DNA from: Verrucomicrobiota bacterium
GTDB taxonomy: Bacteria; Verrucomicrobiota; Verrucomicrobiia; Limisphaerales; JANNEF01
NCBI GenBank assembly: GCA_031378375.1
Contig: JANNEF010000105.1
Span: 693-64,692, forward strand
Direction: 5' to 3'
Length of the DNA stretch: 64,000 bases
A program made the translations under genes and the position numbers. This document shows positions 2,386 through 56,017 of the stretch, piece after piece (position 1 is the first letter of the stretch; each line of letters starts with the position of its first letter). The notes under the pieces are model-generated. The model made no database searches and was not told where the DNA came from. It worked only from the letters and a program-made list of their open reading frames with translations.

Positions 2386-3612
2386 CTATCTCTTTCTCTG
2401 CACCTTCGCCGCGACTTTCAGGCGGAGCGCGTTGAGCCGGATGAAGCCGGTGGCGTCGTCCTGGTTGTAGGCCTTGGTCGGGTCGGCCTCCATCGTGGCG
2501 ATGTGCGGGTTGTAGAGGCTCACGGGAGATTTGCGGCCCGCGACCATGATGTTGCCCTTGTAGAGCTTCACGCGCACCGTGCCGGTCACGTTCTTCTGGC
2601 TCTCGGTCACGTAGGCCTGGAGCGCGAGGCGTTCGGGCGCAAACCAGAAGCCGTTGTAAACGAGTTCGGCGTACTTCGGGATCAACGCGTCGCGCTGATG
2701 CATGACCTCGCGGTCCATCGTCAGCGTCTCCATCTGCCGATGCGCGAAATGCAGGATGGCGCCGCCGGGCGTCTCATACACGCCGCGCGATTTCATGCCC
2801 ACGTAACGGTTCTCCACCATGTCCACGCGCCCGACGCCGTGTTTGCCGCCGAGCTTGTTCAGCGCCTTCATCACGCCGAGTGGTGAAAGCTTCTTGCCAT
2901 TCACGGCCACGCAATTCCCCTTCTTGAAATCGAGCGTGACGAACTCCGGCTTGTCCGGCGCGTCTTCAGGGAACACGGAGAGCGTGTTGAAATAACCGCG
3001 ATACTTCGCCTCGCCCGCATCGAACCACGGGTCTTCGAGAATGCCCGCCTCGTAGGAGATGTGCAGGAGGTTGCGGTCCATCGAGAACGGTTTTTTCGCG
3101 CTGGCTTGCACGGGAATCTTGTGGCGGTCGCAGTAATCAATCATCGCCTGCCGGCCGGGAAATTCGGTGCGATACCGCTCGTCGCGCCACGGGGCGATGA
3201 CCTCCAAATCCGGCGCGAGCGCGGCGGCGGTGAGTTCGAAACGCACCTGGTCGTTGCCCTTGCCCGTCGCGCCGTGGGCGATGGCATCTGCCTTCTCCTT
3301 CTTCGCGATCTCCACCATGCGCTTGGCGATAAGCGGCCGCGCGATGCTCGTGCCGAGAAAGTATTGGCCCTCGTAAATCGCGCCCGCGTGAATCATCGGA
3401 TAGATGAAGTCGGTGGCGAATTCCTCCTGGAGGTCATCGATGTAAATCTTCGACGCGCCGGTGTTCCGGGCCTTCTTTTCGAGGCCGTGGAGTTCCTCCT
3501 CCTGTCCGATGTCGGCGCAGAAGCCGATCATCTCCGCGTTGTATTTATCCTTGATCCATGACATGAGGACCGAGGTGTCGAGACCGCCGGAGTAGGCTAA
3601 AACAATTTTCAT
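2386..3612 (-). CDS. argG: Argininosuccinate synthase
   Basis: Track ORF 2386..3876 trimmed to the ATG at 3612 ([15 protein letters not shown], the SGGLDTS ATP-pyrophosphatase loop). Also has [13 protein letters not shown] and [18 protein letters not shown]. The upstream 88 codons are Arg/Pro-rich and look non-coding. Confidence 0.93.
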
Positions 3613-3757
3613 AATTCGCAAAAAGTTGCGCGGACAATAATCGGGAATTGAGTGCGGGTGGAAAGAAGATTCTACCGCGCTGGCAAGCGGAGGGACACGC
3701 TGCCGCCAGGGAAAGGGACGGGAAACCGGGCGGATCAGGATCCGGATACCGCCCGGC

Positions 3758-6496
3758 TTACTTGTCCAGGCACGCGCGAACCATTTCCGCCAGCTTGGGC
3801 GGCGGGTAGGGTTTTTGGAGGAAGACGGTGTCGCGCCGGCCCATGTCGCGCCCCATGATGTCGGCGCTGTATCCACTGGTGTAAATCACTTTGAGGTCCG
3901 GTTTGCGCGACCTCAATTCATCGGCGAGTTCGCGACCGGTCATGCCTTCCGGCATTACCATGTCCGTAAGCAGCAGATCGATGTTGCCGCCGCGCTTCTC
4001 CCAGACTTTCAGGGCGTCCACGCCGGAGCAGGCCTCCAGCACTTCATAGGCGTAATCCTTGAGGATCATCTGGGCGAGCTCACGCAGGACTGGCTCATCT
4101 TCGACGAGCAGGATGGTCTCGCGTCCACCTTTCACGGCCGGTGGGGCGGCTTTTTCAACCACGACCTCGGCGGTCTTGGTGGTTACCGGGAGGTAAACTT
4201 TGAACGTGGTGCCAACGCCAATTTCGCTGGTGACTTCGAGCCAGCCTTGATGCTGTTTGACGATGCCATACACGGTGGCCAGGCCCAGCCCGGTGCCTTT
4301 GCCGACGGGCTTGGTGGTGAAGAACGGCTCGTAAATACGGTTCAAGGTTTCACGGTCCATGCCACACCCGGAGTCGGCCACGCTCAGGCAGATGAACTGG
4401 CCGGGGCGCGCGTCGGGATGTTGTTGGGCGTAGGCGTCTCCGACCTGGACCGTCTTGGTGGCGACAAGCAGGCGCCCGCCTTTGGGCATCGCATCACGGG
4501 CGTTGACGGAGAAATTCATGATCACTTGTTCGATCATGCCCGCGTCGCCTTCGATAAAGGCCGGCTCGGGCGTGCAACTGCACTCCAGGGCAATGTCGTC
4601 GCCCAGCAGGCGGTGGAGCATCTTGGACAAGTCGCGGAGCAAGCCATTTATATCCAGCACGCGCGGCTGCATGACCTGCTTGCGGCTGAACATAAGCAAT
4701 TGGCGCGTGAGACCAGCGGCGCGGCTGGCGGCATCGGAAACCTGTTTGAGCGGATCGCCGGCTCGCGGATCGAGGTCGGCCATGCCCAGCAAACGATCGG
4801 CGTGGCCCTGGATGATGGTGAGAATATTGTTAAAATCGTGGGCGACACCGGCGGCCAGTTGACCGACGGATTCGAGTCTTTGCGCATGGAGCAATTGCGC
4901 TTCGAGGTTGAGCCGGTCGGTCACGTCCTGCCCGTAGCAATGCACCACGTGATTGGCCAGGATGGGGAAAAAGGACCAGGAGAGCGTTCGTTCGTTGATG
5001 CAGATTTCCTGGCGCAATCTGCTCTGGCCCGTGCGCAGGCATTCCTGCGCCGTCGCCGAGGCACAGGGTGGCAGAATCGCCGCCGCATCCGCGACCGTGA
5101 GCGAGAGCGCCATTTCTGACGCGGCCTGGTTCAAGTAAGTGAGCGTACCGTCGGACGCCAGTTCCAACACCGGATCCGGATTAAAGCGCGGAAAGGCGGC
5201 GAGCTTGCGGATTTCCGCCTCGGCCCGTTTGCGCTCGGTGATGTCGGTGATGGTGCCCGACGTGCCCAGATCCGTGCCAAGCGTGGGCTGCGCGTACACC
5301 TCCACCCAGCGAAACGTGCCGTCGCTGGCGATGAAACGTGTCTCATCACGGCAAAAGCTTTTTCCCCGTTGGATGACTTCTTGAAATACTTCGCAGTGAC
5401 GTTCGCGGTCTTCCGGGTGGACATAATCCACGAACGACTTGCCGAGGGATTCTTTAATCTTGAAACCCGTAATCTCCGTCCACGCGGGATTGAGGAACGT
5501 CCACTGGCCGGCGTCGTTCACCTGAAAGATGACTTCCTTAATGCTCTCGACCACCGAACGATAACGAACTTCACTGGCACCCAAGGCTTCCTCGGAACGT
5601 TTGCGCTCGACACACAAGGCAATGCCGTTGGCAACCGATGACATCTCCTGCAGCACCGTCGGAGCGAAAGGCTGGCTACTATAGATGACCATCAGTCCAA
5701 CGGGCCGTTCCTCGAGCATCAAGGGATAGCCGGCACACGCGACAATCCCTTCGCGCTTGACCCAGTCGCGGTCAGCCACGGGCGTTTCTTTCAACGCGGG
5801 ATTGAACAGAAATGGTTTCCCCTCAGCGATAAGGTCCGGCGGAGAAGTGGTGCGCGAGTTGCACTGTGGATACCCATCCGGGTCGGTGATGGTGCCGACG
5901 CTGGCCTGCAGTTGAAGCAACCCGGCCTCCGGATCAAAAGTCCAGATGCGCGACAACTCCGCCTGGAGATAATTCGACATGGCCGCCGCGCAACGATGCA
6001 AAATCGCATCCAACGAGTCGCGACGGGTCAACGCCAGGCCAACCTCCGCGCCAAAGGCTGCCAGCCTCGCCTGATCCGCCGCCGCCGCCGCCGCAGCGCG
6101 CTGGCGGCCAACGGCATAGCGGATGGAGCGCTCCAGCGAACACGCATCGAGACGGCTCTTGATCAGATAATCCGCCGCGCCGGCCTGCATCGCTTCGAGG
6201 TCGATCTCGTGTTCGCCCTGCCCGGTGAGAAGGATGATGGGCGAGGTGCAGCCCCGTTCCAGCGCCGCCCGCAATACTTCAACGCCGGTTTGGGCGCCGA
6301 GCCGGTAGTCCACCAGACAGATATCATGCTGATTGAGCACCAGCGCTTCGAGGCCGGCGGCGGGATTTTTCACCCACTCCAATTGGAAGCGCCCCCCTTG
6401 AATCTCGGAGAAAAGACTTTTCGTCAGGATGAAATCGTCCTCGTCATCCTCGATCAGAAGAACCTTCAAGGGTTCGTTATGCGTGGGGGACTGCAC
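3758..6496 (-). CDS. Hybrid sensor histidine kinase (receiver-GAF/PAS-HisKA-HATPase-receiver)
   Basis: 912 aa. It has an N-terminal receiver (LLIEDDEDD...DICLVDYRL), PAS-like segments, an H-box ([13 protein letters not shown]), ATPase boxes ([25 protein letters not shown]) and a C-terminal receiver (ILLVEDEP...[14 protein letters not shown]). The GTG start at 6496 overlaps the upstream receiver stop by 1 nt. Confidence 0.9.
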
Positions 6497-9971: not shown

Positions 9972-10952
9972 TCACGCCCCGGCGCGCGGATCCAGGGCGT
10001 CGCGCAGTCCGTCGCCCAGAAAATTCAACGCAAGCAACGTGGTCACCAACATCGTGGCGGGACATACGATCAGCCACCAATACATCCGGATCGGGTTTAG
10101 TTGCGCCGCCCCCTCGGCGATCAGAGATCCCCAACTGGCCATCGGCGGCTGGATGCCCAGGCCGAGGTAGCTCAGGAAAGATTCGTAGAGAATCACTGAA
10201 GGCACCGTGAGTGTGAGGTAAACAATCACCACGCCCCACACGTTCGGCAAAATGTGATGCCACAGGATGCGTGCGTGGCTCGCTCCCAGCGCGCGGCTCG
10301 CTTCCACGAACGCCCGATGCCGCAGCGACAACACCTGGCCGCGCACAATGCGCGCCATGGTCAGCCACGACACCGCGCCCAGCCCGGCGAACAGAAACAG
10401 CAGCCGGGCCGACGAGGCGAAATTCGTACCCGCCACCCTCGTCAGCCAGCTCTTTAACAACCCTTCCAACGTGGCGATCAACACAATCACAAACACGACG
10501 GATGGCAGCGCGTAAAGGATGTCCACGCACCGCATCAACAGTGCGTCCCAGCGTCCACCGACGTAGCCCGCCACCGCGCCCCAAGTGACGCCAATGAGCA
10601 AACTCACGCCCGCGCCGACCGCCCCGACCAGCAGCGAAATGCGCGCGCCGTAGGCCATCCGCGTGAGCACGTCGCGCCCGTGGATGTCCGTGCCGCACCA
10701 GTGGCGCCCGTCGGGTGGTTGAAATTGCGCGTTGGACATACTGCTCTCGCTAAAGGGCGAGAGCCATGGCCACAGCACGATGAACCCGGCCAGCAACAAC
10801 AAAAATCCAAGACTTACCAGTGCCGGGCGGTTGCGTTGGAAACGTCGCCAGGCACGCACGGAGGGACGCGGTGAGTGGCGAGCGGCGAGAGCCACAGCAC
10901 TCGCCATCGTTTCTCCGCCGCCCGCTTCCTCCGCTTCGCGGTCCTCAACCAT
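9972..10952 (-). CDS. Peptide/nickel-type ABC transporter permease (OppC/DppC-like)
   Basis: 326 aa, polytopic, with the EAA-type loop (FVEASRALGASHARILWHHILPN). The start overlaps the upstream permease stop by 8 nt. Confidence 0.85.
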   Translation of the reverse strand: MVEDREAEEAGGGETMASAVALAARHSPRPSVRAWRRFQRNRPALVSLGFLLLLAGFIVLWPWLSPFSESSMSNAQFQPPDGRHWCGTDIHGRDVLTRMAYGARISLLVGAVGAGVSLLIGVTWGAVAGYVGGRWDALLMRCVDILYALPSVVFVIVLIATLEGLLKSWLTRVAGTNFASSARLLFLFAGLGAVSWLTMARIVRGQVLSLRHRAFVEASRALGASHARILWHHILPNVWGVVIVYLTLTVPSVILYESFLSYLGLGIQPPMASWGSLIAEGAAQLNPIRMYWWLIVCPATMLVTTLLALNFLGDGLRDALDPRAGA

Positions 10953-11859
10953 GTTTCACCCTCCGGTCGAGCACGCTGTAGCTCAGATCCACCAGCAGGT
11001 TCAGCACGAGCAACAGCACCGCGTAAAGCAAGACGAGGCCGACGATCATCGGGTAATCCCGATTCTGCGTGCTGTTCACCAAAAACACGCCGATACCGGG
11101 AATGCGAAAAATGTTTTCGATGACGAATGATCCGGTCAGCAAATCCGCCAGCAATGGCCCCGCGTAGGACACCACCGGCAGCACGGCCAGCCGAAACGCA
11201 TGCTTGATCAGGATGGCCGGTTCGCTCAAGCCCTTCGCACGCGCGGTGGTGATGAAACCTTCGTGCAACGTGCTCAACATTCCCTCGCGCATGAGTCGCG
11301 CGACTCGACCGGAAAAGTAAAGTCCCAGTGCCAGCGTCGGCAGCACCGCGTGCAGCGGCGACTCCCACAACGCCACCGGCAGCCAGCCCAAGTGGATCGC
11401 GAAAACCATCACCAGCAAGGGCCCAACAACGAATCCGGGCACACACACCGCGAGGATGGCAAGGAAACTTCCCACCCAGTCCCCCCACTCGCCTTTGCGC
11501 ACCGCCGTGTAGAAACCAAGCGGGATGCCCACGCCCTGCGCGAAGCCGAACGCCAGCAAGCCCAGTATGAGTGACACCGGCAGACCCTGCGCAATGATGT
11601 CGTTGACGGTGTGGCTGCGGTATTTGAGCGACGGCCCAAAATCACCGCGCGCCAGGCCGCCGAGGTAACGCAAGTATTGTTGCCAGAGCGGCTCGTCGAG
11701 ATGGTATTTCGCCTTGAGATTGCGCTCAATGTCGGGCGTGGACGGCTCGCGCTCCTTGTCGAACGGCCCACCCGGCGCCACGCGCACCAGCGCAAACGCC
11801 AGCGCGCTGATGAGCAGCAGCAGCGGGAGGAGGAAGATGGCGCGCTTGAGGAAATACAT
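10945..11859 (-). CDS. Peptide/nickel-type ABC transporter permease (OppB/DppB-like)
   Basis: 304 aa. It has the typical N-terminus MYFLKRAIFLLPLLLLISALAFALVRVAPGGPF and the loop FITTARAKGLSEPAILIKHAFR. Confidence 0.88.
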   Translation of the reverse strand: MYFLKRAIFLLPLLLLISALAFALVRVAPGGPFDKEREPSTPDIERNLKAKYHLDEPLWQQYLRYLGGLARGDFGPSLKYRSHTVNDIIAQGLPVSLILGLLAFGFAQGVGIPLGFYTAVRKGEWGDWVGSFLAILAVCVPGFVVGPLLVMVFAIHLGWLPVALWESPLHAVLPTLALGLYFSGRVARLMREGMLSTLHEGFITTARAKGLSEPAILIKHAFRLAVLPVVSYAGPLLADLLTGSFVIENIFRIPGIGVFLVNSTQNRDYPMIVGLVLLYAVLLLVLNLLVDLSYSVLDRRVKHG

Positions 11860-11862
11860 GCC

Positions 11863-11966
11863 GATTAATCAGTGAGTCAGTAATCAGTAAACCAGTGGTG
11901 TGGCAGCCCGGGGCAGTTACTCCGTCCGCCGGATACTGACTCACCGATTACTGGATACTGGTTCAC
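11863..11966. repeat. CAGT-word palindromic element (copy in the opp operon)
   Basis: The left arm is GATTAATCAGTGAGTCAGTAATCAGTAAACCAGTGGTG. The right arm is GGATACTGACTCACCGATTACTGGATACTGGTTCAC, built of reverse-complement words. A ~30-nt spacer separates them. Confidence 0.8.
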
Positions 11967-13629
11967 TTCCGCGCTTCTTCCGTATCGCATACACCGGATG
12001 TTCATCAATCAGGTTGGGATGAATGCCCTCGATACGCGCGGAATCGTAAAAATGAATTCCGGCGTAAAAGTAGAGCGGGACGATGGGCAGTTCGTCGCGC
12101 ACGAGCAGCGTCTCGGCTTCCCGTAAAAACTTCTCGCGTAGTCTCGGGTCGGTCTGGCGATTACCCTCGCGCACCAATTCGTCGTAGCGCGTGCTCTTCC
12201 AGCCGGTGCGGTTGTTGCCGTTGTTGCTCATGAACATGTCGAGAAACGTGTTTGGATCGTTGTAGTCCCCGACCCAACTGCTGCGGCCCACGTCGTAGTC
12301 CAGCGCGCGCAACGCGACCAGATACACTTTCCACTCCGCCTGGCGCAATTCCATACGGATGCCCAGTTCCCGTTGCCACATCGCCTGGATTTCCACGCTG
12401 ATCTGCTCGTCGGTCTTGCCGGTGTTGAACAGGTACTGGAACACCGGAAACCCCTTGCCGCCGGGAAAGCCGGCCTGCGCCAGAAGCTTCCGCGCCTGAT
12501 CCGGATCGTAGTCCAGACCTGCGGGCGGATCGTAAACCGGCATTCCCCTGGGCGTGAAATGCGCCGCCACCCGCTCGCCGCCGCGCGTGATTTTTTCGAC
12601 GATGCGCCGCTTGTCCACCGCCAGCGCCAGCGCCCGGCGCACCCGCACGTCGTCGAAGGGCTTCCGCGTCACGTTGTAGCGGTAGAACAGCGTGCCGAGA
12701 TAATCAAACGTGTGGCAGTCCGGGCGGCGCCGCAACGCGTCCATCAACTGGCCGGGGACCAGCGACTTGTCCCAGATGATGTCCGCCCGGCCGGTGAGAT
12801 AGAGATTGATGGCCGTCATCGGCGAGTCCATCGAGAGAAAATCCACCACGGAACTGTGGACGTTCGCCGCGTCCCAGTAGCGCGGATTGCGGCGCACGCG
12901 GATGCGGTCCTGCAGCCGCCACTCGACCAGTTCGTACGCGCCGCTCACTGGCATCGGTGGCATCACGACCCAGCGATCGCCGTGCTTTTCGATGGCGAAC
13001 TTCGGCGCAACGGCAAGCGTCGGAAACGCGCACAGGTCCAGGAAGAACGGCGTGGGGCCAGTCAGTTCCGCCCGCACCGTGTGAGCGTCGAGCGCACGCA
13101 CGCCAACTTGTGCCGGATCTTTGATTCGGCCGCTGTTGAACTCCTCACCGTTCTTCAGGAAAAACAATTGTCCGGCGTAATCGGCGGCAGTGTTCGGGTC
13201 GAGCACTCGAATCCAGGAATAGACCACGTCCTCCGCCGTGATCGGCTGGCCGGTGGACCAGGCGGCATTGGTGCGCAGATGAAAAGTGTAGGTCGTGCCG
13301 TCCGGCGAAATCTCCCACCGGTGAGCCAGGCCCGGTTCGGGAGCCGCGTTGGTGGGATTGATGCGCGTCAATCCCTCGAAGAGCGCCCGCACTACGCGCC
13401 CGTCCGCCTGGCCAGTGATGATCGCCGGGTCGAGCGATTCCGGCTCCGCGCCGTTGATGATGACGAGGTCGGCGCGAGACGGAACGGCCGGGCGGGCGGA
13501 AAGGAGCGGCAGCAACAGGAGCGGCAGCAACAGGAGCAGCAGCAACGGCAGCGGGCGCACCGCGCACGACGCCCCCAAAAAACGAAACGCCCTCTTGAAA
13601 CTCAAGAGGGCGTCCGTGGAAAACTTCAT
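11941..13629 (-). CDS. ABC transporter substrate-binding protein, family 5 (OppA/DppA-like)
   Basis: 562 aa. A Leu-run signal peptide is followed by typical family-5 segments (INGAEPESLDP, WSTGQPITAEDVVYSW, RRALALAVDK). The last 8 codons and the stop lie inside repeat element 11863-11966. Confidence 0.85.
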   Translation of the reverse strand: MKFSTDALLSFKRAFRFLGASCAVRPLPLLLLLLLPLLLLPLLSARPAVPSRADLVIINGAEPESLDPAIITGQADGRVVRALFEGLTRINPTNAAPEPGLAHRWEISPDGTTYTFHLRTNAAWSTGQPITAEDVVYSWIRVLDPNTAADYAGQLFFLKNGEEFNSGRIKDPAQVGVRALDAHTVRAELTGPTPFFLDLCAFPTLAVAPKFAIEKHGDRWVVMPPMPVSGAYELVEWRLQDRIRVRRNPRYWDAANVHSSVVDFLSMDSPMTAINLYLTGRADIIWDKSLVPGQLMDALRRRPDCHTFDYLGTLFYRYNVTRKPFDDVRVRRALALAVDKRRIVEKITRGGERVAAHFTPRGMPVYDPPAGLDYDPDQARKLLAQAGFPGGKGFPVFQYLFNTGKTDEQISVEIQAMWQRELGIRMELRQAEWKVYLVALRALDYDVGRSSWVGDYNDPNTFLDMFMSNNGNNRTGWKSTRYDELVREGNRQTDPRLREKFLREAETLLVRDELPIVPLYFYAGIHFYDSARIEGIHPNLIDEHPVYAIRKKRGSEPVSSNR

Positions 13630-25660: not shown

Positions 25661-26656
25661 ATGACCTTCGCGCATCCCTATTTTTTGTTGCTGTTGTTGC
25701 TGCTTCCGGTGATCGCGTGGCTGCGGGGCAAGCACGGCCCGCGGGCGGCGTTTCTTTATTCATCCGTGCAGTTGGTGCAGGATGTCTCCCACGTCAGCCG
25801 TTCGAGCGCGGGCCGGGTTTTGACGGCCCTGCGCTGGCTGACGCTGGCGTTGTTCATCGTGGGGCTGGCGCGGCCGCAACTGGTCGAGAGCGAGACCACC
25901 GTCAACGCCAGCGGCATTGACATCGTGCTGGCGGTTGATCTTTCCGGCAGCATGGAATCGGAAGACTTCACGCTCAAAAACCAACGCGTGAACCGCCTCG
26001 TGATCGCCAAGGATGTGTTGAAGAAATTCATCGAACGCCGCCCGGGCGATCGCATCGGGCTGGTGGCATTTGCCGGCAAGGCGTACATCGCCGCCCCGAT
26101 GACGCTCGACCACGGCTTCCTGCAACAAAACCTGGAGCGCCTCGCCCTGCACTCCATTGAGGACGGCACCGCCATTGGTTCCGGCCTGTCGGCTTCAATC
26201 AACCGGCTGCGCGATCTGAAATCCAAGAGCAAGATCGTCATCCTGATGACCGACGGACAGAACAACGCGGGCAAAGTCCCGCCGCTCACCGCCGCCGAGG
26301 CTGCGCAGACTCTGGGCGTGAAGGCTTACACCATCGGCGTCGGCACGCGCGGCACCGCGCCCATGCCGCGCATGAATGTCTTCGGCCAGAAAGTCTATGT
26401 GCAGGTGCCGGTGGACATTGACGAGGAGACGCTCCAGGCCATCGCGAAAAAAACCGGCGGCAAGTATTATCGCGCCGACAGCACGGACACCTTGCGCAAG
26501 ATTTACGACGAGATCGATCAACTGGAAAAGACCGAGGTCGAAGTGAAGAAGTATGTGCGCATCGAAGAACTGTTTTTCTGGGCGGTGGCGCCGGGGCTGG
26601 GGCTGCTGCTGCTGGAGATTTTGTTGAACAACACAATTTGGCGGAGGCTGCCGTGA
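25661..26656 (+). CDS. batA: VWA-domain membrane protein BatA
   Basis: Track ORF trimmed to the ATG at 25661 (MTFAHPYFLLLLLLLPVIAW). It has a VWA MIDAS motif (DIVLAVDLSGSM, ILMTDGQNN) and a C-terminal TM segment. Confidence 0.88.
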   Translation: MTFAHPYFLLLLLLLPVIAWLRGKHGPRAAFLYSSVQLVQDVSHVSRSSAGRVLTALRWLTLALFIVGLARPQLVESETTVNASGIDIVLAVDLSGSMESEDFTLKNQRVNRLVIAKDVLKKFIERRPGDRIGLVAFAGKAYIAAPMTLDHGFLQQNLERLALHSIEDGTAIGSGLSASINRLRDLKSKSKIVILMTDGQNNAGKVPPLTAAEAAQTLGVKAYTIGVGTRGTAPMPRMNVFGQKVYVQVPVDIDEETLQAIAKKTGGKYYRADSTDTLRKIYDEIDQLEKTEVEVKKYVRIEELFFWAVAPGLGLLLLEILLNNTIWRRLP

Positions 26657-26660
26657 GGGG

Positions 26661-26786
26661 AATAGTAATCAGTGGGTCAATAATCAGTGAATCAGTCACT
26701 GAGAAGCGAGGTTCACCGTCCCGCATAGCTGCGATCGCCATTGATCACTGGTTCACTGATTACTGACCTACTGACCCACTGACAAC
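26661..26786. repeat. CAGT-word palindromic element (batA-batB intergenic copy)
   Basis: The left arm is AGTAATCAGTGGGTCAATAATCAGTGAATCAGTCACTGAG. The right arm is TTGATCACTGGTTCACTGATTACTGACCTACTGACCCACTGAC, e.g. TCAGTGGGTCA pairs with TGACCCACTGA. The spacer is ~37 nt. Confidence 0.85.
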
Positions 26787-26789
26787 GCC

Positions 26790-28685
26790 ATGCGCTTTGA
26801 ACATCCCGAACTGCTGTGGTTCCTCCTGCTCGCCGTGCCGGCGCTGACCGCCTTTCTCTGGTGGGCCTGGCGGCGGAAGCGGGCGCTTATCGCGCAGTTC
26901 GTCCGGTCGCGGTTGCTGGCGAACCTCACAGTGGGCGTTTCGACCACGCGGCAAAAAGCGCGGCTGGCTTTGCTCGTCGCCAGCGTCGCGCTGCTCATCG
27001 TGGCGCTGGCGCGGCCCCAGTGGGGTTTCGACTGGGAGGAGGCGCGGCAGCGCGGGCTGGACATCATCGTGGCGATTGACACCTCGCGCAGCATGCTGGC
27101 CGAGGACGTCGCGCCCAACCGCCTGGAGCGCGCCAAACTCGCCGCGATGGATTTGAAAAAACTCGCGCGCATGGACCGGCTGGGCCTGGTCGCCTTCGCC
27201 GGCAGCGCCTTCCTGCAATGCCCGCTCTCCACCGACGACGAGGCGTTCCGCCAAAGCGTGAACGCGCTCGATGTGAACATCATTCCCCAGGGCGGCACGG
27301 CGCTGGCGGAGGCAATCCAGTCGGCCTTGAGCGCCTTCAAGGAAAAGAGCGACAACCACAAGGTGCTCGTGCTGTTCACCGACGGCGAGGATCACGACGG
27401 CAGCGCCCTGGCCGCCGCCAAACAGGCGGCGAAGGACGGGCTGCGCATCTTCACCGTCGGCGTGGGCACGCCGAACGGCGAGTTGCTGCGCCTCCCCGGC
27501 TCGAAGGGGCGGAGCGAGTTCATCAAGGATACGTCGGGCAACGTGGTGAAGTCGCGGCTGGATGAGCAGTTGCTCCGGCAGATGGCGCAGTCGGCGGAAG
27601 GATTTTACCTGCTCCTGAGCGGAGCCAACACGATGGATGTGCTCTACGAGCGCGGCCTGGCGCCGCTGCCGAAGGCGGAGTTCTCGGCCAAGCGGGTGAA
27701 GCGCCCCCACGAGCGTTACCAATGGCTGCTGGGATTGACGATGGTGCTATTGTTGGTCGAGATGTTTTTGCCGGAACGAAAGATCGCACGAGACGCCGGG
27801 GTGATGACCGAAGGCGGCGTCAGCGCCGGACTGCCGAAGGCGGTCGCGCTGTTGCTGCTGCTCGCGTGGCCGGGATTCGCCACCGCCTCGCCTGCCGGCG
27901 CGTTGAAAAAGTACGAGAACGGGAAATACGAGTCGGCGCTGCTGGAATATCAGCGGCTGATCAAGAAGAAGCCCGGCGATCCGCGGCTGGAATTCAATGC
28001 GGGCGCGGCGGCGTATCAGGCGCAGGATTTCCAGGAAGCGTTGAAGCACCTGAATTCCTCGCTCCTCACTCCCGATGTGCCGCTACAGCAGCGCGCCTAT
28101 TACAATCTCGGCAACACGCAGTATCGGGTGGGTGAGGACGCGGCCGAACCACAGAAAAAGCAGGAAGTGTGGGAACAGGCGGTGACGAGCTACGAGAGCG
28201 CGCTCAAACTGAACCCGGCGGACGAAGACGCGAAGTTCAACCTCGACCTGGTGAAGACGAGGCTGGAGGAACTCAAGAAGCAGCAGCAACAGCAGCAGTC
28301 CAAGGATGGCAAGGACGACAAGGACAAAAAGGGCGATCAGAAGAAGGACGAGCAATCCAAGAACGACCAGAAGCAGGACGGAAAGAAGTCCGACGAGCAG
28401 AAACAGCAGGAGCAGCAAAAACAGGAACAGCAGAAGCAGCAGGAGAATCAGGAGGCGAAGAAAGACGGGCAGAAGCAGGACGAACAAAAACAGGCGCAAC
28501 AGAACCAACCCGACGACAAATCAGACAAACCGGAAGACGCCCAGGCTGGCCACACGATGATGGTGCGGATGACCCCGAAGGAAGCGCAACAGTTGCTCGA
28601 CGCGCAGAAGGGCGAGGAGAAGGCTATGATTTTTCAGCCACAGTTGAAGACCAACCGGAACGAGCGCGTGTTCAAGGACTGGTGA
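26790..28685 (+). CDS. batB: VWA + TPR membrane protein (BatB/BatC-type fusion) with Lys/Gln/Glu-rich tail
   Basis: 631 aa. Starts MRFEHPELLWFLLLAVPAL and has a VWA MIDAS motif (DIIVAIDTSRSM, LFTDGEDHDG). It also has a TM segment, TPR repeats (YENGKYESALLEYQRLIKKKP, AYYNLGNTQY) and a ~90-aa K/Q/D/E low-complexity region. Confidence 0.88.
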   Translation: MRFEHPELLWFLLLAVPALTAFLWWAWRRKRALIAQFVRSRLLANLTVGVSTTRQKARLALLVASVALLIVALARPQWGFDWEEARQRGLDIIVAIDTSRSMLAEDVAPNRLERAKLAAMDLKKLARMDRLGLVAFAGSAFLQCPLSTDDEAFRQSVNALDVNIIPQGGTALAEAIQSALSAFKEKSDNHKVLVLFTDGEDHDGSALAAAKQAAKDGLRIFTVGVGTPNGELLRLPGSKGRSEFIKDTSGNVVKSRLDEQLLRQMAQSAEGFYLLLSGANTMDVLYERGLAPLPKAEFSAKRVKRPHERYQWLLGLTMVLLLVEMFLPERKIARDAGVMTEGGVSAGLPKAVALLLLLAWPGFATASPAGALKKYENGKYESALLEYQRLIKKKPGDPRLEFNAGAAAYQAQDFQEALKHLNSSLLTPDVPLQQRAYYNLGNTQYRVGEDAAEPQKKQEVWEQAVTSYESALKLNPADEDAKFNLDLVKTRLEELKKQQQQQQSKDGKDDKDKKGDQKKDEQSKNDQKQDGKKSDEQKQQEQQKQEQQKQQENQEAKKDGQKQDEQKQAQQNQPDDKSDKPEDAQAGHTMMVRMTPKEAQQLLDAQKGEEKAMIFQPQLKTNRNERVFKDW

Positions 28686-48247: not shown

Positions 48248-49960
48248 ATGCCCAGCCCGCCTTCAACCAGACAACCCTTGCGCGAATCCGACACGAACGA
48301 CGGGCGCACGCTGATTGACGACTTGCTCGCCGAGCAGCGTCAACTCACCGCCGTCGAACAATTCTCCCGCGCGCACGACGCCCACGAAGTCCACGGCCGC
48401 CGCTACCGCGATCTGCTTCCCGCCAATGCGCCCGCGCCCGGACAGCAATACGCCTTCGAGGTGGACCTCGACCAGTGCAGCGGCTGCAAGGCGTGCGTGA
48501 CCGCGTGCCATTCGCTCAACGGCCTCGACGACGACGAGACCTGGCGCAGCGTCGGCGCGTTGCACTCCGCCAATGTGCGCCAGCCGCTCAAACAGATCGT
48601 CACCACGGCCTGTCATCATTGCGTGGATCCCGGTTGCCTCACCGGCTGTCCCGTGCTCGCCTACGACAAAGACCCCGTCACGGGCATCGTTCGCCACCTG
48701 GATGACCAGTGCATCGGCTGCCAGTATTGCGTGATGAAATGTCCCTACGAGGTGCCGCAGTACTCGAAGACTCGCGGCATCGTGCGCAAGTGCGACATGT
48801 GCAGCTCGCGCCTCGCCGTCGGTGAAGCCCCCGCGTGCGTGCAAGCCTGCCCGAACGAGGCGATCCGCATCACGGTGGTGGATCAGGCGAAGGTGCGCGG
48901 GAAGTATCGCAGGCTAAAATCCGAAGGCCGAAATCCGAAATCCGAATCAAATCCGAAGGCCGATAACCAAAACTCGCCATTCGGATTTCGGAATTCTTTC
49001 GGGCTTCGGGCTTCAGATTTCGGATTTCACAACTCCTTCCTCCCCGACTCGCCGAATCCCGCCATCACGCTTCCGACGACCCGTTACGTTTCCAAGCGCG
49101 CCCTGCCCGGCGACCTCGAAGCCGCTGACGCCCATGAACTCCGCCGCGCGAAGCCGCATCCGCCGCTCACCCTCATGCTGGTGCTCACCCAACTCGGCGC
49201 GGGGCTGGCGCTGATGGACGCGCTCACGGGCGGCGCGGCGCGGATGCTGGCAGCCGTCGCCCTCGCGGCCAGCGCCCTCGGCGTCGTCGCGGGCACGCTG
49301 CACCTGGGCCAGCCGCTCAAGGCGTGGCGCAGTTTTCTCGGCTGGCGCAAATCATGGCTGAGTCGCGAGTTGATTGCCTTCGGCGCTTTCGTCGGCGTGC
49401 TCGGCTCGCATCTGGCCATTGGCCGTCCGCTCTCCGCCGGTCTCGCCGCGCTCACCGGACTCCTCGCGGTCGCGTGCTCGGCGATGGTTTACGCGGACAC
49501 GCGCCGGCCGTTCTGGAACGCGCCGATGACATTTGGAAAATTCCTCGGCACCACGCTGTTGCTCGGCGGGGCGGGGTCCCTGTTGCTGTCGGCGCTTGCC
49601 ACGAATCCACTCCTGCCGCGCCCTCTGGTGGTCGCCGTGATCGTGCTCGGCACCATCTTCAAGCTGGCCGTGGAGAATCGCATCTTCCGCTTTCTCGTGG
49701 ACGAACAAGACCCGCACCTCACCGCTCTCAACAAGACCGCCCTGCTGCTCAACGGCCTGTTCGGCCGGCTCTCGCGCGGTCGCGTGGCTTGCGCCCTCGC
49801 GGGTGGAGTGGTGCTTCCGGCGTTGATGCTTGTCACCGGCGCGGGCGTCGCCTTGCCCGCGTTGGCGCTGACGTTGTGCGTCGCGGGTGAACTCATCGAG
49901 CGCCATCTCTTTTTCGTCGCCGAGGTCGCGCCCAAAATGCCGGGAGGCCGGGGAGTATGA
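48248..49960 (+). CDS. Fusion of a 4x[4Fe-4S] ferredoxin (DmsB/NrfC-like) and a DmsC-like polytopic membrane anchor
   Basis: Track ORF trimmed to the ATG at 48248. It has four Cys clusters ([41 protein letters not shown]...CVQACP). About 8 hydrophobic helices follow, from residue ~300. The stop overlaps the nasA start (ATGA). Confidence 0.8.
48915..49030. repeat. AATCCGA-word palindromic element (in-frame copy inside the FeS/DmsC gene)
   Basis: The left arm is TAAAATCCGAAGGCCGAAATCCGAAATCCGAATCAAATCCGAAGGCCGA, followed by a 15-nt spacer. The right arm is ATTCGGATTTCGGAATTCTTTCGGGCTTCGGGCTTCAGATTTCGGATTTCAC. It is translated as [39 protein letters not shown]. Confidence 0.85.
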
Positions 49961-52362
49961 AGACCACGGGAGCCACAACCAGGCGCGCGGCTGTGGTCGC
50001 AGACCCAGCCGCAGCGCCCACGCAACGACAACGAGCTGCGGCTGATCCTACGGACCCAGCCGCGCTCCAATCGAACTCCCTTCTCCGTCAATGGAGCGGC
50101 CCGCTGTCCTCCGACCTCACGTTGCATCCCGGCGACTTTGGTCTCGGCAGAATCCCCGCCCGCCTTCGCCCCGACGCCACCACACGCTCCATCTGCGGCT
50201 TCTGCTCCACGGGCTGTTCGCTTGACGTTCACCTGCAATCCGGCGTGGCCGTGAACCTCACGCCCACGGTGGACTATCCGGTGAATCTGGGCATGGCGTG
50301 CCCGAAAGGCTGGGAGGCGCTCACCTGTCTGGCCGCGCCGGATCGCGCCACACAACCGCTTTTGCGCAATCCCGACACCGGCAAACTCGAACCCACCGAC
50401 TGGGACGAAGCGATGCAGGTCTTCACGCTGAAGTTCAAGGCGCTGATGGATCAGCACGGGCCGGAGAGTGTGGCGTTTCTCAGCACCGGCCAGATTTGCA
50501 CGGAGGAGATGGCGCTCCTCGGCGCGCTTTGGAAGTTCGGCATGGGCGCGTTGCACGGCGACTCGAACACGCGCCAGTGCATGGCCACCAGCCACGTTGC
50601 CTACAAGCAGAGCTTCGGCTTCGACGCGCCGCCCTACACCTACGCGGACTTCGAGGAGTCGGACACGCTCGTCTTCATCGGCTCGAATCTCTGCATCGCG
50701 CACCCGATTCTCTGGCAGCGCGTCCTGCGGAACAAAAAAAATCCCGCCCTCATCGTCATTGACCCGCGCAAGACGGAGACGGCGATGAACGCGACCCAGC
50801 ACGTCGCGCTGCGGCCCAAGTCCGACCTCACGCTGCTCTACGGCCTGGCGAACCTGCTGGTGCAGGGCGGCTGGATTGACCGCGCGTTCATCGAGCGCAG
50901 CACGACGGGATTCGCGGAGTTCGCGGAGTTCGTGCGGCAGTTCACACCCGACAAAGTTGCGGCGGAGACCGGCTTGACCGTGGGCGAATTGTCCCGCGTC
51001 GCCGAGACCATCGCGAAGGGCAAGGCCGTGAGTTTCTGGTGGACGATGGGCGTGAACCAGAGCCACGAGAGCACGCGCACCGCGCAGGCCGTCATCAATC
51101 TCGCGCTGATGACCGGCAACATCGGCCGTCCCGGCACCGGCGCGAACAGCATCACCGGCCAGTGCAACGCGATGGGCTCGCGCCTGTTCGCCAACGCCTC
51201 GGGACTGCTTGGCGGGCGCGACTTCCTCAACGCTGAACATCGCGCCGAGGTATCGCGCGCGTTGCACATCGCGCCGGAAAGCATTCCCGCGAAGAACTCG
51301 CTCGCCTACGACCAAATCATGCAGGGCATCGCCGAGGGCCGGATCAAGGGCCTATGGGTCATCGCCACGAACACGGCGCACTCGTGGATTGATTCCGCCC
51401 GCGCCTGTGGCGCACTCGACAAGCTGGAATTTCTCGTCGTGCAGGACATGTTCACGACCACCGACACGGCGAAACGCGCGCATCTGATTTTGCCCGCCGC
51501 CGGCTGGGGCGAGAAGGAGGGCACGTTCATAAACAGCGAGCGGCGCTTCGGTCACATCAAGAAAGTGTCACGCGCGCCCGGCCAGGCGTTGAGCGATTTT
51601 AACATCTTCCGCCTGGTAGCCGAATACTGGGGCTGCGCCGGGATGTTCAGCCAGTGGACTTCGCCGCAGGCCGTTTTCCAAATCCTGAAAAGACTTTCCG
51701 CCGGTCGCCCGTGCGACATCACGGGCATCGAAGACTACCGGCATCTGGATGCGAGCGGCGGGATTCAGTGGCCGCTGGCAAAAGAACGTGAGTCAGTAAT
51801 CAGTGAGCCAGTGACCAGTGAACGCGAGATGGCGACGGGTTCCGCTACTGATTCACTGAATACTGGCGCACTGATTACTGATCACTCTCCCCGCGAACGC
51901 CGCCTCTTCGCCGACGGCAAGTTCTTCACTCCCGATGGCCGCGCAAAATTCCTCTTTGACCCGCCACGTCCCGTCGCCGAGCCGGTGGACAGCGAGTATC
52001 CGTTCGTGCTGTTGACCGGACGCGGCACGAGCGCGCAATGGCACACAAACACGCGCACCGGCAAGTCCGCCGTCTTGCGCACGCTGTATCCGGCCAACCC
52101 CTACGTGGAGATCCATCCGAAAGACGCCGCGCGATTGCGAATCGAACCAAACACGACCGTCGCCGTCATCTCACGACGCGGGCGCGTTGAGTGCGCCGCG
52201 GTGGTCACACCCATCGTGCAGCCCGGACAGGTCTTCATCCCGATGCATTACGACCTGACGAACCAATTGACCCGCGCCGAGTTCGATCCGCACTCGCGCC
52301 AGCCCAGCTACAAACATTGCGCAGTGCGAATTGAACCGACGCGCAACGGTTCCAACAAATGA
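49957..52362 (+). CDS. nasA: Molybdopterin (bis-MGD) oxidoreductase, assimilatory nitrate reductase type (NasA/NarB-like)
   Basis: 801 aa with an N-terminal FeS motif ([10 protein letters not shown]...CPKG) and MGD-binding segments ([14 protein letters not shown]). The C-terminal barrel has [20 protein letters not shown] and the tail [10 protein letters not shown]. Confidence 0.85.
51788..51887. repeat. CAGT-word palindromic element (in-frame copy inside nasA)
   Basis: The left arm is GTGAGTCAGTAATCAGTGAGCCAGTGACCAGTGAAC, followed by a 23-nt spacer. The right arm is TACTGATTCACTGAATACTGGCGCACTGATTACTGATCACTC. It is translated as [33 protein letters not shown]. Confidence 0.85.
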
Positions 52363-54233
52363 GCGCCACGGAGTCCAACATCGTTGAGTTGCCCAAGTCG
52401 CCCGGACGCGAATTCACGCCCGAGCAAAAGGAATATCTCGCCGGCTTCATGGCAGGCATCGCGCAGCGCGGAATGATCCCCTTCGTCGGCGCGATGCCGG
52501 ATGGCCGCCTCACCGCTGACCCGGCGCACGGCGGCGACAATCTCGCCGCGCCGCGCGAGGAGACGGTGTTCGGCACGCCGCTCTCGGAGTTATGCAAACA
52601 GGAGCGATGGAAGTACGAGGAAAACCCGCTGGACGTTTGGGACAAGCTGCTCGCCTGCGCCGAGCAGGACAAACTACCCGACGAGGCGGACACTTTTCGC
52701 TTTCGGGCGCACGGCCTGTTCAACGTCGCCCCGGCGCAGAACGCCTTCATGCTGCGCTGCCGCATCCCCGCCGGCGAGTTGACGGCGGCGCAACTCAAGG
52801 GCCTCGCCGACATCGCGGAGGAATGGGGCGGCGGCTGGGCGGACATCACCACGCGGTCGAATATCCAGATTCGACAAATTGCGCCGCGCCACATCATCAA
52901 GGTGCTGACGCGGCTGCAGGAACTCGGACTCACCGCGCGCGGTTCCGGCGTGGACAACATTCGAAATGTCACCGCGTCGCCCACGGCGGGCTTCGACGCG
53001 GCGGAGTTGATTGACACGCGCCCGCTGGCGCACGCGCTGCACCACTACATCCTCAATCACCGCGACCTCTACGGGCTGCCGCGCAAGTTCAACGTCGCCT
53101 TCGACGGCGGCGGCGCGGTGAGCGCGGTGGCGGACACGAATGACATCGGGTTCGTGGCGGTACGAGTGGCGCAGGCTTCCAGCCTGAGTCCGGCGGGCTT
53201 GCCGCCCGCGAATCTGGGGCAGGGTGCCCCAAGCGGCAGGCTGGAAGCCTGCCCCACTATCGAGCCCGGCACCTACTTCCGCGTCGAACTCGCCGGCATC
53301 ACCGGGCACCGGCAGTTCGCGAAGGACGCGGGCATTCTCGTGAAGCCGGGCGAATGCCTGGCCGTCGCCGCCGCGATGATTCGCGTGTTCTGTGAGCACG
53401 GCGACCGTACCGACCGCAAGAAGGCGCGGCTGAAATACCTGATTGATAAGTGGGGCATCCCGAAGTTCCTCGAAGCGACGCAAGCGAAACTCGCCTTTGC
53501 GCTCCGTCATTTTCCGTTGGAGCAGTGCGAGCCGCGCCATCCGGCGGTGAAGCACGGGCACATCGGCGTGTTCAAGCAGGCGCAGCGCAACTTGAACTAC
53601 GTCGGCGTCGTCATCCCCGTGGGCCGGATGCAGGCGCGGCAAATGCGCCGGCTCGCCGACCTCGCGGCAAATTACGGCTCTGGCCACCTGCGCCTGACGC
53701 CGTGGCAGAATCTGCTATTGCCGAACATCCCCGACGGTTTCGTCGAGACGGTGAAGCGCAATCTCCTCCGCATCGGTTTCCACTATGAAGCCAGCACCAT
53801 CGCCGGCGGCCTCGTCGCCTGCACCGGCAACACCGGTTGTAAGTGGGCCGCGACGAACACCAAGGGCCAGGCGGTGGAGCTGGCGCGCTATCTGGAAAAG
53901 CGCGTGCAACTCGACCAGCCGATCAACATCCATCTCACCGGCTGCCCGAACTCCTGCGCGCAGCACTACATGGGCGACATCGGCCTGCAAGGGGCGCGCG
54001 TCACGTTGAGCGGCGAGTCGGTGGAGGCGTATCACGTCGTGCTTGGTGGCGGTTACGGCGCGGAGCAGGCGGTAGCAAAGGAAGTGTTCAAAGGCATCCC
54101 GTTCTCCGCGCTGCCGGAGCTGCTGGAGCGGGTGCTCATTGTTTACCAGGAGAAGCGGGCGGCGGGCGAGAGCTTCGCCGCGTTCACGCGCCGGCATGAA
54201 GTGAAACAACTGCAAGAGATGTTTTCTGAGTGA
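52359..54233 (+). CDS. nirA: Sirohaem/[4Fe-4S] nitrite (or sulfite) reductase hemoprotein, NirA-type
   Basis: 624 aa. It has duplicated NIR_SIR halves and the cluster/sirohaem Cys motif ([11 protein letters not shown]...[17 protein letters not shown]). The start overlaps the nasA stop (ATGA). Confidence 0.85.
53171..53252. repeat. Inverted-repeat element inside nirA (in frame)
   Basis: Perfect 16-bp inverted repeat GCAGGCTTCCAGCCTG (53171-86) / CAGGCTGGAAGCCTGC (53237-52). It encloses two small hairpins (GCGGG-CTTGCCG-CCCGC and GGGGCA-GGG-TGCCCC). It is translated as [28 protein letters not shown]. Confidence 0.8.
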
Positions 54234-56017
54234 TGGAAACCAACTTGATTCCCTACCTGCCCGACACGGCGCCGTTCACGCCGGAGCAACGAGCCTATTT
54301 GAACGGGCTGTTCGCCGGCCTGTTCGCCCACGCGCCGCGCGCCACCAACCCGGCGCCTGCCGCCAAGCCACTGCTACCGCTGACCATTCTGTTTGGCTCG
54401 CAGACCGGCAATGCGGAGGCGCTCGCCAAGCGCGTCGCCAAGGAAGCCGGCAAGCAGGGCTTCGCGCCGACGATCTTTGACGCGGCGCAATATCCGCGCG
54501 AGCAACTCAAGACCGAGAAGCATCTGCTGCTCATCACCAGCACCTACGGTGACGGCGAACCGCCGGACAACGCAAAGGACCTGTGGGAATTTCTCACCGC
54601 CACCACCGCACCCGCGCTGCCGGAGTTGAAGTTCTCCGTGCTGGCCCTGGGCGACACGAACTACGAAAAGTTCTGCGAGTGCGGGAAAAACTTCGACCGC
54701 CGCTTCCATGAGCTGGGCGCACACCGGGCGCATCCGCGCGTGGATTGCGACGTGGACTTTGAGGAGCCATTCGGGAACTGGCTGGCCGGCGCGTTGGGCG
54801 CGCTGGCAGGCGGTGGGGGAGTAATCAGTGAATCAGTAATCAGTAGGTCAGTGACCAGTGCGCCCGTCTCTGCCACTGATTCACTGGTTACTGGTTACTC
54901 GCGCGCCCACCCGTTCCCCGCCCCGCTCGTCGCCAACCGCCGGCTCAACGCTCCCGGCTCGGGCAAGGACACGCGGCATTTTGAAATCGCACTCGACGGC
55001 AGCGGCTTGACCTATGAAGTCGGCGACGCGCTGGGGGTGGTGCCGGCGAATTGCCCGGAACTCGCGGACGAGATGCTTCGCACGCTCGGCTGCACCGGCG
55101 GGGAAGCGGTGCCCGGCGCGAAGGGTGGCGAAGTCCCGCTGCGCGAGGCGCTGTTGCGGCATTACGACATCACGAAGATTGCCCAGCCGCTCTTGCAGGC
55201 AATGGCAGAGCGGAGCGGGGACGAGTTGCTCAAGCAACTCACCGCGCCCGGTGTGAACGGCGAGTTGACGAAATTTCTCTGGGGCCGCGAGATTGTTGAC
55301 CTGTTGCTGGCGCACCCGCGCGCGAAGTTCGCACCGATGGAATTTGTCGGCCTGCTCAAGAAACTTCAGCCGCGGCTCTACTCCATTTCCTCCAGCCCCA
55401 AGGCACATCCCGGCCAGGTGCATCTCACTGTCGGGGTCGTGCGCTACGAATCGCTGGGCCGGGCGCGCAAAGGCGTGTGCTCCACGTTCCTGGCGGAGCG
55501 CGCGGGCGGCGGCGCGGCGGCGCCGGTCTTCGTCCACACGAACAAAGGCTTTCGCCCGCCCGCCGATGGCAGCCGTCCGATGATCATGGTCGGGCCGGGC
55601 ACGGGCATCGCGCCGTTCCGCGCTTTTCTGGAAGAGCGTCGCGCCGTCGGCGCGACGGGAAAGAACTGGCTGTTCTTCGGCGACCAACGGTCGGAGATGG
55701 ATTTCCTCTACCGCGAAGAGCTGGAGGCGATGCATCGCGACGGCACGCTGGCGCGGCTGGACACGGCTTTCTCCCGCGATCAGGAAGAAAAGATTTACGT
55801 GCAACAGCGAATGCTCGAACACGCCACCGAACTGTTCACCTGGCTGGAGGCCGGCGCGCATTTCTACGTCTGCGGCGACGCCAACCGCATGGCGAAGGAC
55901 GTGGACCGGGCGCTGCACCAGATCATCGAGCAAGCCGGCGGACGCACGGCAGAGCCGGCGGCGGAGTACGTGAAGAAGATGCAGGCGGAGAAGCGGTATC
56001 AGCGGGATGTGTATTGA
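54230..56017 (+). CDS. Diflavin reductase, sulfite reductase flavoprotein CysJ-like (flavodoxin + FAD/NADPH domains)
   Basis: 595 aa with an FMN domain ([32 protein letters not shown]) and an FAD/NADPH domain ([42 protein letters not shown]). Start is GTG 54230 or ATG 54233; both overlap the nirA stop. Confidence 0.88.
54821..54900. repeat. CAGT-word palindromic element (in-frame copy inside the cysJ-like gene)
   Basis: The left arm is GTAATCAGTGAATCAGTAATCAGTAGGTCAGTGACCAGTG, followed by a 13-nt spacer. The right arm is CACTGATTCACTGGTTACTGGTTACTC. It is translated as [27 protein letters not shown]. Confidence 0.85.

Follow-up and report, generated by a model that had tools for sequence, protein, structure and literature searches.

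A CAGT-word palindromic repeat translated within the hinge of a CysJ-like reductase from a Verrucomicrobiota bacterium

How does a long hairpin come to be read, in frame, in the middle of a gene for a multidomain enzyme, and what does it do to the protein? The question is raised by a 64,000-nt stretch of a Verrucomicrobiota bacterium (GenBank assembly GCA_031378375.1, contig JANNEF010000105.1; the whole stretch is called the window here), in which the open reading frame (ORF) for a CysJ-like diflavin reductase carries, at 54821-54900, an 80-nt imperfect hairpin built of CAGT and ACTG words. A sequence-only reading had assigned this segment to a dispersed repeat family, placed it in the hinge between the flavodoxin and flavin adenine dinucleotide (FAD) domains, and proposed that it could alter electron-transfer dynamics. 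We found that the segment belongs to a family that recurs within the window and in other genomes, and that the hinge it occupies is of ordinary length. On balance, we favor the view that it is a selfish palindromic repeat, akin to repetitive extragenic palindromes (REPs) and Rickettsia palindromic elements (RPEs), that is compatible with translation and tolerated in a permissive linker.

When re-read from the window, the two arms, the 13-nt spacer, the coordinates and the 27-residue translation were all as previously described. The left arm (54821-54860, + strand, GTAATCAGTGAATCAGTAATCAGTAGGTCAGTGACCAGTG) contains five CAGT words whose starts lie 8, 7, 8 and 7 nt apart, carries the family terminus AGTAAT and encodes 13 residues. 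The loop (54861-54873, + strand, 13 nt, CGCCCGTCTCTGC) encodes APVSA together with its flanking bases and bears no relation to the loops of other copies. The right arm (54874-54900, + strand, CACTGATTCACTGGTTACTGGTTACTC) contains three ACTG words with starts 8 and 7 nt apart, ends in GGTTACTC and codes for TDSLVTGYS. The element is in frame with ORF 54230-56017 and supplies residues 198-224, its last codon ending at 54901, one base beyond the element itself. Folded as RNA, it reaches a minimum free energy (MFE) of -45.1 kcal/mol (vs. -24.6 ± 3.1 kcal/mol in 200 shuffles, z -6.5), and folded as DNA, -22.1 kcal/mol (z -5.6). The arms are unequal because the left one holds an extra, unpaired 15-nt unit (AGGTCAGTGACCAGT), and this surplus of exactly one unit fits the gain or loss of units that preserve the frame.

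The word spacing explains how such an array can be translated at all. A word of 7 nt and one of 8 nt together make 15 nt, or five codons, and on each strand of a 15-nt unit such as AATCAGTGAATCAGT exactly one frame is free of stops, read as (ISESV)n or (TDSLI)n, whereas in arrays consisting only of the 7-mers or only of the 8-mers of these words every frame is closed by a stop within 8 codons. The earlier suggestion that the alternation preserves the reading frame therefore holds. The same 7/8 alternation is found in the intergenic copies of the window, and is thus a property of the family.

The host protein has the three domains, joined by a flexible hinge, that define CysJ and related diflavin reductases. 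The ORF (54230..56017, + strand, 595 aa) contains Flavodoxin_1 (residues 53-176), FAD_binding_1 (224-420) and NAD_binding_1 (453-559) in Pfam, and aligns full-length with 6efv, the sulfite reductase flavoprotein of E. coli (E 4e-127). In an AlphaFold2 model for which 37 homologs were used (mean predicted local distance difference test score, pLDDT, 86), residues 196-221 form a coil with pLDDT <50 between flavodoxin helix 178-193 and FAD-domain strand 229-238; because this disordered stretch separates the last flavodoxin helix from the first FAD strand, the insert is the hinge. Its position between the flavin mononucleotide (FMN) and FAD domains is thus supported by both Pfam and the model, but not the claim that it lies there exactly: the right arm closes with TAC TCG (Tyr-Ser), which falls on a motif, YS[KR], that is kept in orthologs and E. 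coli CysJ, so that these codons also open the FAD-domain segment.

To place this hinge among its relatives, we compared the 120 best homologs, which come from Limisphaerales/Pedosphaera-type Verrucomicrobiota, counting hinge length between conserved anchors; none of the loci whose DNA was retrieved overlaps the window. Plain hinges, mostly Ala/Pro-rich, were found in 77 of these orthologs, CAGT-type hinges in 30 (LLVISNQSEAA...TQSLITN; SVISDQSSVISC...; QCSVISVQS...ALNTDSLKTE), and hinges from other repeat families in 13 (LTPALSP...GEGRGEG; AGRAGCPQPAAG; ...LKRELQ). The hinge of the window protein measures 30 aa, against a median of 32 in all 120 orthologs (27 in plain and 34 in CAGT-type hinges; range 17-132), and the aligned linker of E. 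coli CysJ is of similar length. With so ordinary a length, the element replaces the native linker and adds little to it, and the proposal that it changes hinge mechanics or electron-transfer dynamics finds no support here. None of the orthologs has the same hinge sequence, and the plain-hinge loci L006 and L007 hold no CAGT arrays in ~21 kb each, which leaves the assignment of the hinge to the repeat family intact. The CysJ hinge accepts many kinds of repeat. At least three such repeat-derived hinge peptides other than the CAGT type (...LTPALSPS..GEGRGEGE; ..PYPAEAGRAGCPQPAAG..; ..GVQALAC..LKRELQ) occur in P0008, P0010, P0017, P0034, P0043, P0050, P0061, P0076, P0079 and others.

At the DNA level, eight element-bearing orthologs show pure heptamer words, as do CAGT arrays in other genomes, whereas the window copies alternate 7 and 8 nt. 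Most of the eight form hairpins, and the hairpin is kept in L001, L003, L004 and L120-L122. At L005:1459-1560, heptamers of the CAGT type give way to an unrelated array, (AACGGAC)n, coding for ATDNGQRTTH, a second heptamer family in frame that leaves no hairpin; one recognizable arm is left in the hinges of P0013 and P0070; and in L123 uncompensated arm changes have weakened the stem to an MFE of -19.5 kcal/mol. Further copies are carried by L003 and L123. The element-bearing protein of L003 and the plain-hinge protein of L007 are 93% identical, and element and plain states are interleaved on a neighbor-joining tree of the orthologs, which together indicate turnover of hinge content between close relatives. 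The window protein stands on a long branch of its own, and its hinge copy uses the 8/7 words of its own source genome.

The hinge segment is far from alone in the window. The patterns CAGT-N4-CAGT-N3-CAGT and CAGT-N3-CAGT-N4-CAGT occur six and seven times, respectively, in the 64 kb and not once in any of 100 shuffles, and all 13 matches fall into four elements (~11865-11968, 26664-26784, 51788-51885 and the hinge copy at ~54820-54900), two of them intergenic and two in genes. All four fold at RNA MFEs of -44 to -54 kcal/mol. Their eight arms align to the consensus AGTAATCAGTGAGTCAGTAATCAGTGAATCAGTGACC, with AGTAATCAGTGAGTCAGTAATCAGT... as the arm consensus common to the copies, whereas their loops are unrelated; the inner word GACCAGTG is common to copies c3 and c4. 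Membership of the hinge segment in a dispersed family is thereby confirmed.

The second in-gene copy (51788..51885, + strand, MFE -53.7 kcal/mol, z -7.8) lies in frame in the ORF of a NasA-like molybdopterin oxidoreductase (49957-52362), where it supplies 33 residues of the variable stretch that links the Molybdopterin domain to Molydop_binding. This gene belongs to a NasA-like/NirA-like/CysJ-like cluster in which neighboring ORFs overlap by 4 nt and of which the CysJ-like ORF is the last. The ORF between them (52359-54233), for a NirA-like nitrite/sulfite reductase hemoprotein, contains a different in-frame hairpin at 53166-53257 (GTGG-CGCAGGCTTCCAGCCTG...CAGGCTGGAAGCCTGCC-CCAC; MFE -70.9 kcal/mol, z -5.4), which resembles a GTGG-tagged REP dimer and is located in a loop that is variable among orthologs; all three operon genes therefore contain in-frame palindromic repeats. 

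The two intergenic copies occupy operon-internal junctions almost exactly, each beginning within a few nt of the stop upstream and leaving 5-7 nt to the following ATG. One of them (11865..11968, MFE -44.4 kcal/mol, z -3.9) lies between two minus-strand genes at an ABC-transporter junction; the binding-protein ORF (11941-13629) takes its last ~9 codons and its TGA stop from the right arm, and ~6 nt lie between the end of the left arm and the ATG that starts the permease ORF (10945-11859). We take this binding-protein/permease junction to be the position of the classic malE-malF REP. The other (26664..26784, MFE -51.1 kcal/mol, z -6.4) lies between two co-directional vWA/Bat-like genes, beginning 7 nt after the stop at 26656 and ending 5 nt before the ATG at 26790. 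On inspection of the sequence, neither copy leaves a recognizable Shine-Dalgarno sequence and neither is followed by a T-run; since no T-run lies 3' of either hairpin, a reading of these two copies as intrinsic terminators was rejected.

Beyond the window, the 22-mer AATCAGTGANTCAGTAATCAGT was found at more than 112 places among the matches listed, in ~35 species-representative assemblies, mostly of Verrucomicrobiota but also of Chloroflexota (Promineifilaceae, Anaerolineae, Ardenticatenaceae) and of a few Bacteroidota and Acidobacteriota; one metagenome-assembled genome (MAG) carries it exactly on at least 40 contigs. It was not matched in viral contigs, so no phage vector was seen. The family has the architecture [xxxCAGT]n, an unrelated loop of 2-80 nt, and [ACTGxxx]n, with arms of 25-70 nt, 2 to 14 words per arm (the arms often being unequal) and a whole element of 70-130 nt. 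The order of arrays in adjacent pairs is strict, CAGT then ACTG in 53 pairs and the opposite in none. The termini are AGTAAT...ATTACT (A-G-T-A-A-T-CAGT at both ends in a profile over 70 elements), flanked by purine-rich sequence on the left and pyrimidine-rich sequence on the right. A literature search returned no description of the CAGT word strings or of heptamer hairpins in Verrucomicrobia.

The in-gene habit, too, extends beyond the window. Of 73 hairpins, 18 fall within long ORFs that extend at least 80 codons to either side, and all 18 are read as VISxSVIS... and a second stretch of 10 residues. Their hosts are real genes, encoding DnaE, UvrA, PSCyt1/PSCyt2/PSD1 proteins and DUF7133 proteins, and the copies lie either at domain borders (directly before PSCyt2 in three proteins) or as insertions in loops (PSD1, DUF7133). 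Two element-bearing MAGs labeled Bifidobacterium (L016 and L080, 62-63% G+C) are probably mislabeled or contaminated bins: L016 has the PSD1-like motif VTSATYRQ beside its element and, as far as the sequences tell, the L080 ORF appears closely like the DUF7133 protein of L074. In L049 (Aequorivita marina, 41% G+C), seven ACTG-word arrays lie in one orientation within ~3 kb (3067-6253); these are direct arrays, not hairpins, and are more like the TAACTGA-type arrays described in Bacteroidetes.

The pairing of sites seen in the window recurs in a Pedosphaera-like clade. Both L123 (631-708 vs. 3617-3693) and L003 (NasA linker vs. 10617-10700) carry a NasA and a CysJ copy, and in each genome the two copies have in common a 22-nt, subfamily-specific string, TTAGTAATTAGTAATCAGTCCG, with 1-2 base differences in the L003 copies. 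That the same variant string stands in two genes of one genome argues for copying between sites. The NasA ortholog of L003 (5127-7673) has a CAGT-type linker (SLVISNES..NTNHFSLITS) and, in addition, an insertion of 54 aa (RSSSRREETPSKMWSAECGTRNGKGG...) that both the window and L006 lack.

We reasoned that these features could be accounted for if the hinge segment were one copy of a dispersed, non-autonomous family in which two inverted arms of 7/8-nt words enclose an unrelated loop, and which would spread by copying of the arm sequence. The copying could be done in trans by an HUH/Y1-type transposase recognizing the hairpin or its single strand, or by gene conversion, and whole words would later be gained or lost through replication slippage; the variable word counts suggest that slippage alters element size after the event. 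Most copies landing in genes would be lost. Those that survive would be read in the sole stop-free frame offered by the 15-nt (7+8) period (ISESV.../...TDSLI), would be of a length that preserves the downstream frame, and would have landed in a linker or loop whose structure permits them. One such place would be the hinge between the flavodoxin and FAD domains, with the Ser/Val/Ile/Thr-rich, disordered peptide of the element doing the job of an ordinary Ala/Pro-rich tether while hinge length stays normal, and the effect of the element on the enzyme is probably close to neutral.

Several observations weigh against this account. The 141 ORFs within 400 nt of elements (only adjoining ORFs were scanned) contain no recurrent transposase family; their matches spread over 173 Pfam families, each in 3 ORFs at most and with no transposase in the top 25 listed, and they represent ordinary housekeeping genes. 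No target-site duplication was seen around the elements (a direct repeat of ≥4 nt was absent at every offset, and matches of 3 nt were limited to two offsets and at most 1 of 70 elements), extended terminal inverted repeats beyond AGTAAT were not found, and there is no conserved interior, the loops of 65 copies sharing no real similarity beyond self-overlaps or residual words. Mobility is therefore something that we infer. The source genome, moreover, has no close relative among the orthologs, the closest non-self homolog of its CysJ-like protein being 70% identical. The paired occupancy of NasA and CysJ in the window and in the Pedosphaera-like clade could reflect long retention rather than repeated insertion; the sharing may stem from ancient retention with homogenization or from repeated insertion at the only permissive sites. 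Finally, in six orthologs of the VISNQSE clade in which arm constraint was measured, codons at identical residues are identical at a frequency of 0.87 in the arms, a value attained by ~4% of random column sets, vs. 0.71 over the remainder of the gene, and G+C content at third codon positions (GC3) is 0.31 in the arms vs. 0.85 elsewhere. This codon signal, although weak, hints at nucleotide-level constraint or at homogenization, unlike what a purely neutral passenger would give.

In a rival account, the hairpin itself would be what matters, slowing ribosomes at a domain boundary to let the flavodoxin domain fold first, protecting the polycistronic mRNA or guiding its processing, or binding a protein that recognizes the words, with the peptide as a by-product. 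The very stable structures (-45 to -54 kcal/mol), the domain-border positions of in-gene copies, the retention of the hairpin in the six orthologous hinges named above, and the synonymous conservation and AT-ending, rare codons of the arms in a GC3-rich gene would all be expected of a functional hairpin. So would the intergenic copies adjoining the next start codon, given that a post-transcriptional role has been proposed for the related TAACTGA repeats (MacGregor, PMC4679880). One compensated pair also fits, GTA/TAC having become GTG/CAC in L003 with an intermediate state in L122. Yet covariation was insufficient as proof of structure, because several other changes among six orthologs compared are uncompensated against this single compensated pair. 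Moreover, 77 of the 120 orthologs, some of them 93% identical to element-bearing proteins, manage without the element; the hairpin is absent in L005, has lost an arm in P0013 and P0070, and has decayed in L123; and location in linkers would be equally expected from tolerance alone. The synonymous-site signal (~0.04) is weak and could stem from gene conversion among copies, and no Rfam family matched at the gathering score in the whole window, with sub-threshold look-alikes of microRNA precursors alone on the element. A functional hairpin therefore seems to us unlikely. A bolder version, in which the hairpins are a cross-phylum family evolved to survive translation, the arms are held for a hairpin or word function, and an undescribed, sequence-specific copying process writes the inverted word arrays, is distinctly unlikely. 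Its bases are the low GC3, the excess of synonymous conservation and the occupancy of the same NasA and CysJ linkers in lineages ~68% identical and, were it true, the function might be a translation pause at domain boundaries or a binding site for a conserved factor.

The elements might, alternatively, never have moved: arrays could grow in place by slippage of a heptamer seed, with the inverted arm arising by template switching, and so be long simple-sequence repeats. Word numbers of 2 to 14 in often unequal arms, a hinge left arm exactly one 15-nt unit longer than its partner, unrelated loops, and the lack of target-site duplications or a nearby transposase are all compatible with local growth, as is the statement, attributed to Mrazek (2007) in PMC4679880, that, of the long simple repeats found in prokaryotes, those with a heptanucleotide unit are the commonest. 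But dozens of sites in a genome, and genomes of different phyla, have the same words, word order and termini, the polarity is a strict 53 to 0, and a 22-nt variant string specific to one subfamily stands in two genes of one genome; slippage would account for the variation in size, not for the origin of shared sequence, and we strongly doubt that local growth explains the family. Nor is it credible, beyond a very small chance, that the insert is an adaptive change in the protein, a hinge that, changed in length or flexibility, tunes FMN-domain movement and electron transfer. The hinge governs domain motion in diflavin reductases (cytochrome P450 reductase and the sulfite reductase flavoprotein, CPR/SiRFP), and the insert makes up nearly the whole of it, which is what gives this idea its appeal. 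Against it stand the ordinary length of the hinge, its unconserved sequence, freely swapped among orthologs for Ala/Pro linkers or at least three other repeat families, and the occurrence of the same peptide in unrelated proteins.

A translation-compatible selfish repeat, the reading that we prefer, would show how such an element can live inside the essential genes of a gene-dense genome: the 15-nt period would assure one readable frame, and selection would spare only the copies in interdomain linkers. For annotation, VISxSVIS... peptides in proteins of Verrucomicrobiota and Chloroflexota are better taken as repeat-derived linkers than as motifs. The CysJ-like hinge, for its part, offers a natural series of dozens of unrelated linkers (Ala/Pro, CAGT-type and three other repeat families) on a conserved diflavin reductase, which could serve to ask how much hinge sequence weighs relative to length. 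The near-identical words across phyla, in parallel to the TAACTGA repeats, point to some sequence-specific process.

Among known systems, the TAACTGA heptamers have a nearly identical core. These direct repeats, known from Beggiatoaceae, Cyanobacteria and Bacteroidetes, are often sited shortly upstream of start codons, where a post-transcriptional role is proposed for them, are occasionally translated as LSVISYQ, and include one reported indirect repeat (MacGregor 2015, PMC4679880). The CAGT unit, (A/G)ATCAGT, reads TTACTGA on the other strand and differs by one base, the core being T-A-ACTGA there and T-T-ACTGA here. The two families are alike in being arrayed in tandem at many sites, often directly 5' of start codons, with occasional ...SVIS... 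peptides in ORFs and a patchy, cross-phylum spread without an evident vector. Cyanobacterial STRR (short tandemly repeated repetitive) heptamers are comparable tandem heptamer arrays. Yet the TAACTGA arrays are direct, whereas the CAGT arrays form inverted hairpins (53 to 0) whose 7/8 alternation opens a frame, and the host phyla differ.

REPs have a similar in-gene habit. In-gene GTAG/CGTC REPs are most numerous in Opitutus terrae, where genes of the uvrA and dnaE type are among those that contain them, adding 20-30 residues whose proposed setting is a flexible linker or loop (Di Nocera et al. 2013, PMC3733652). Like them, the CAGT elements are small, dispersed, mostly intergenic palindromes with a sizeable in-frame minority, again in uvrA- and dnaE-type genes, and both systems are frequent in Verrucomicrobia; the high copy number and inverted doublets (four elements per 64 kb; 53 inverted pairs) also recall REPs and REPINs (doublets of REPs). 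In contrast, the CAGT family has no GTAG or CGTC tag but ends in AGTAAT/ATTACT (70 elements), its arms are 25-70 nt of tandem 7/8-nt words where a REP has a 5-13 bp stem in a 20-40 bp palindrome, its loops are unrelated, and no REP-associated tyrosine transposase (RAYT) was found among the 141 ORFs adjoining elements.

RPEs, as the account of Ogata et al. (2000) is relayed in PMC3733652, are inserted in frame in many unrelated protein genes and occur between genes as well. Going by that summary, the two families are alike as palindromic repeats found within functional genes and between genes, whose peptide is tolerated at surface or linker positions; they differ in that RPE copies follow a full-length consensus and are confined to Rickettsia, whereas the CAGT family shares its arms alone and spans phyla. 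[quoted passage not shown] Having no tag or short stem, it lacks the defining features of REPs; having no full-length consensus, it lacks that of RPEs; and having no duplication or conserved interior, it lacks those of MITEs. In-frame palindromic repeats are already known, and the CAGT-word family is another form of this established type.

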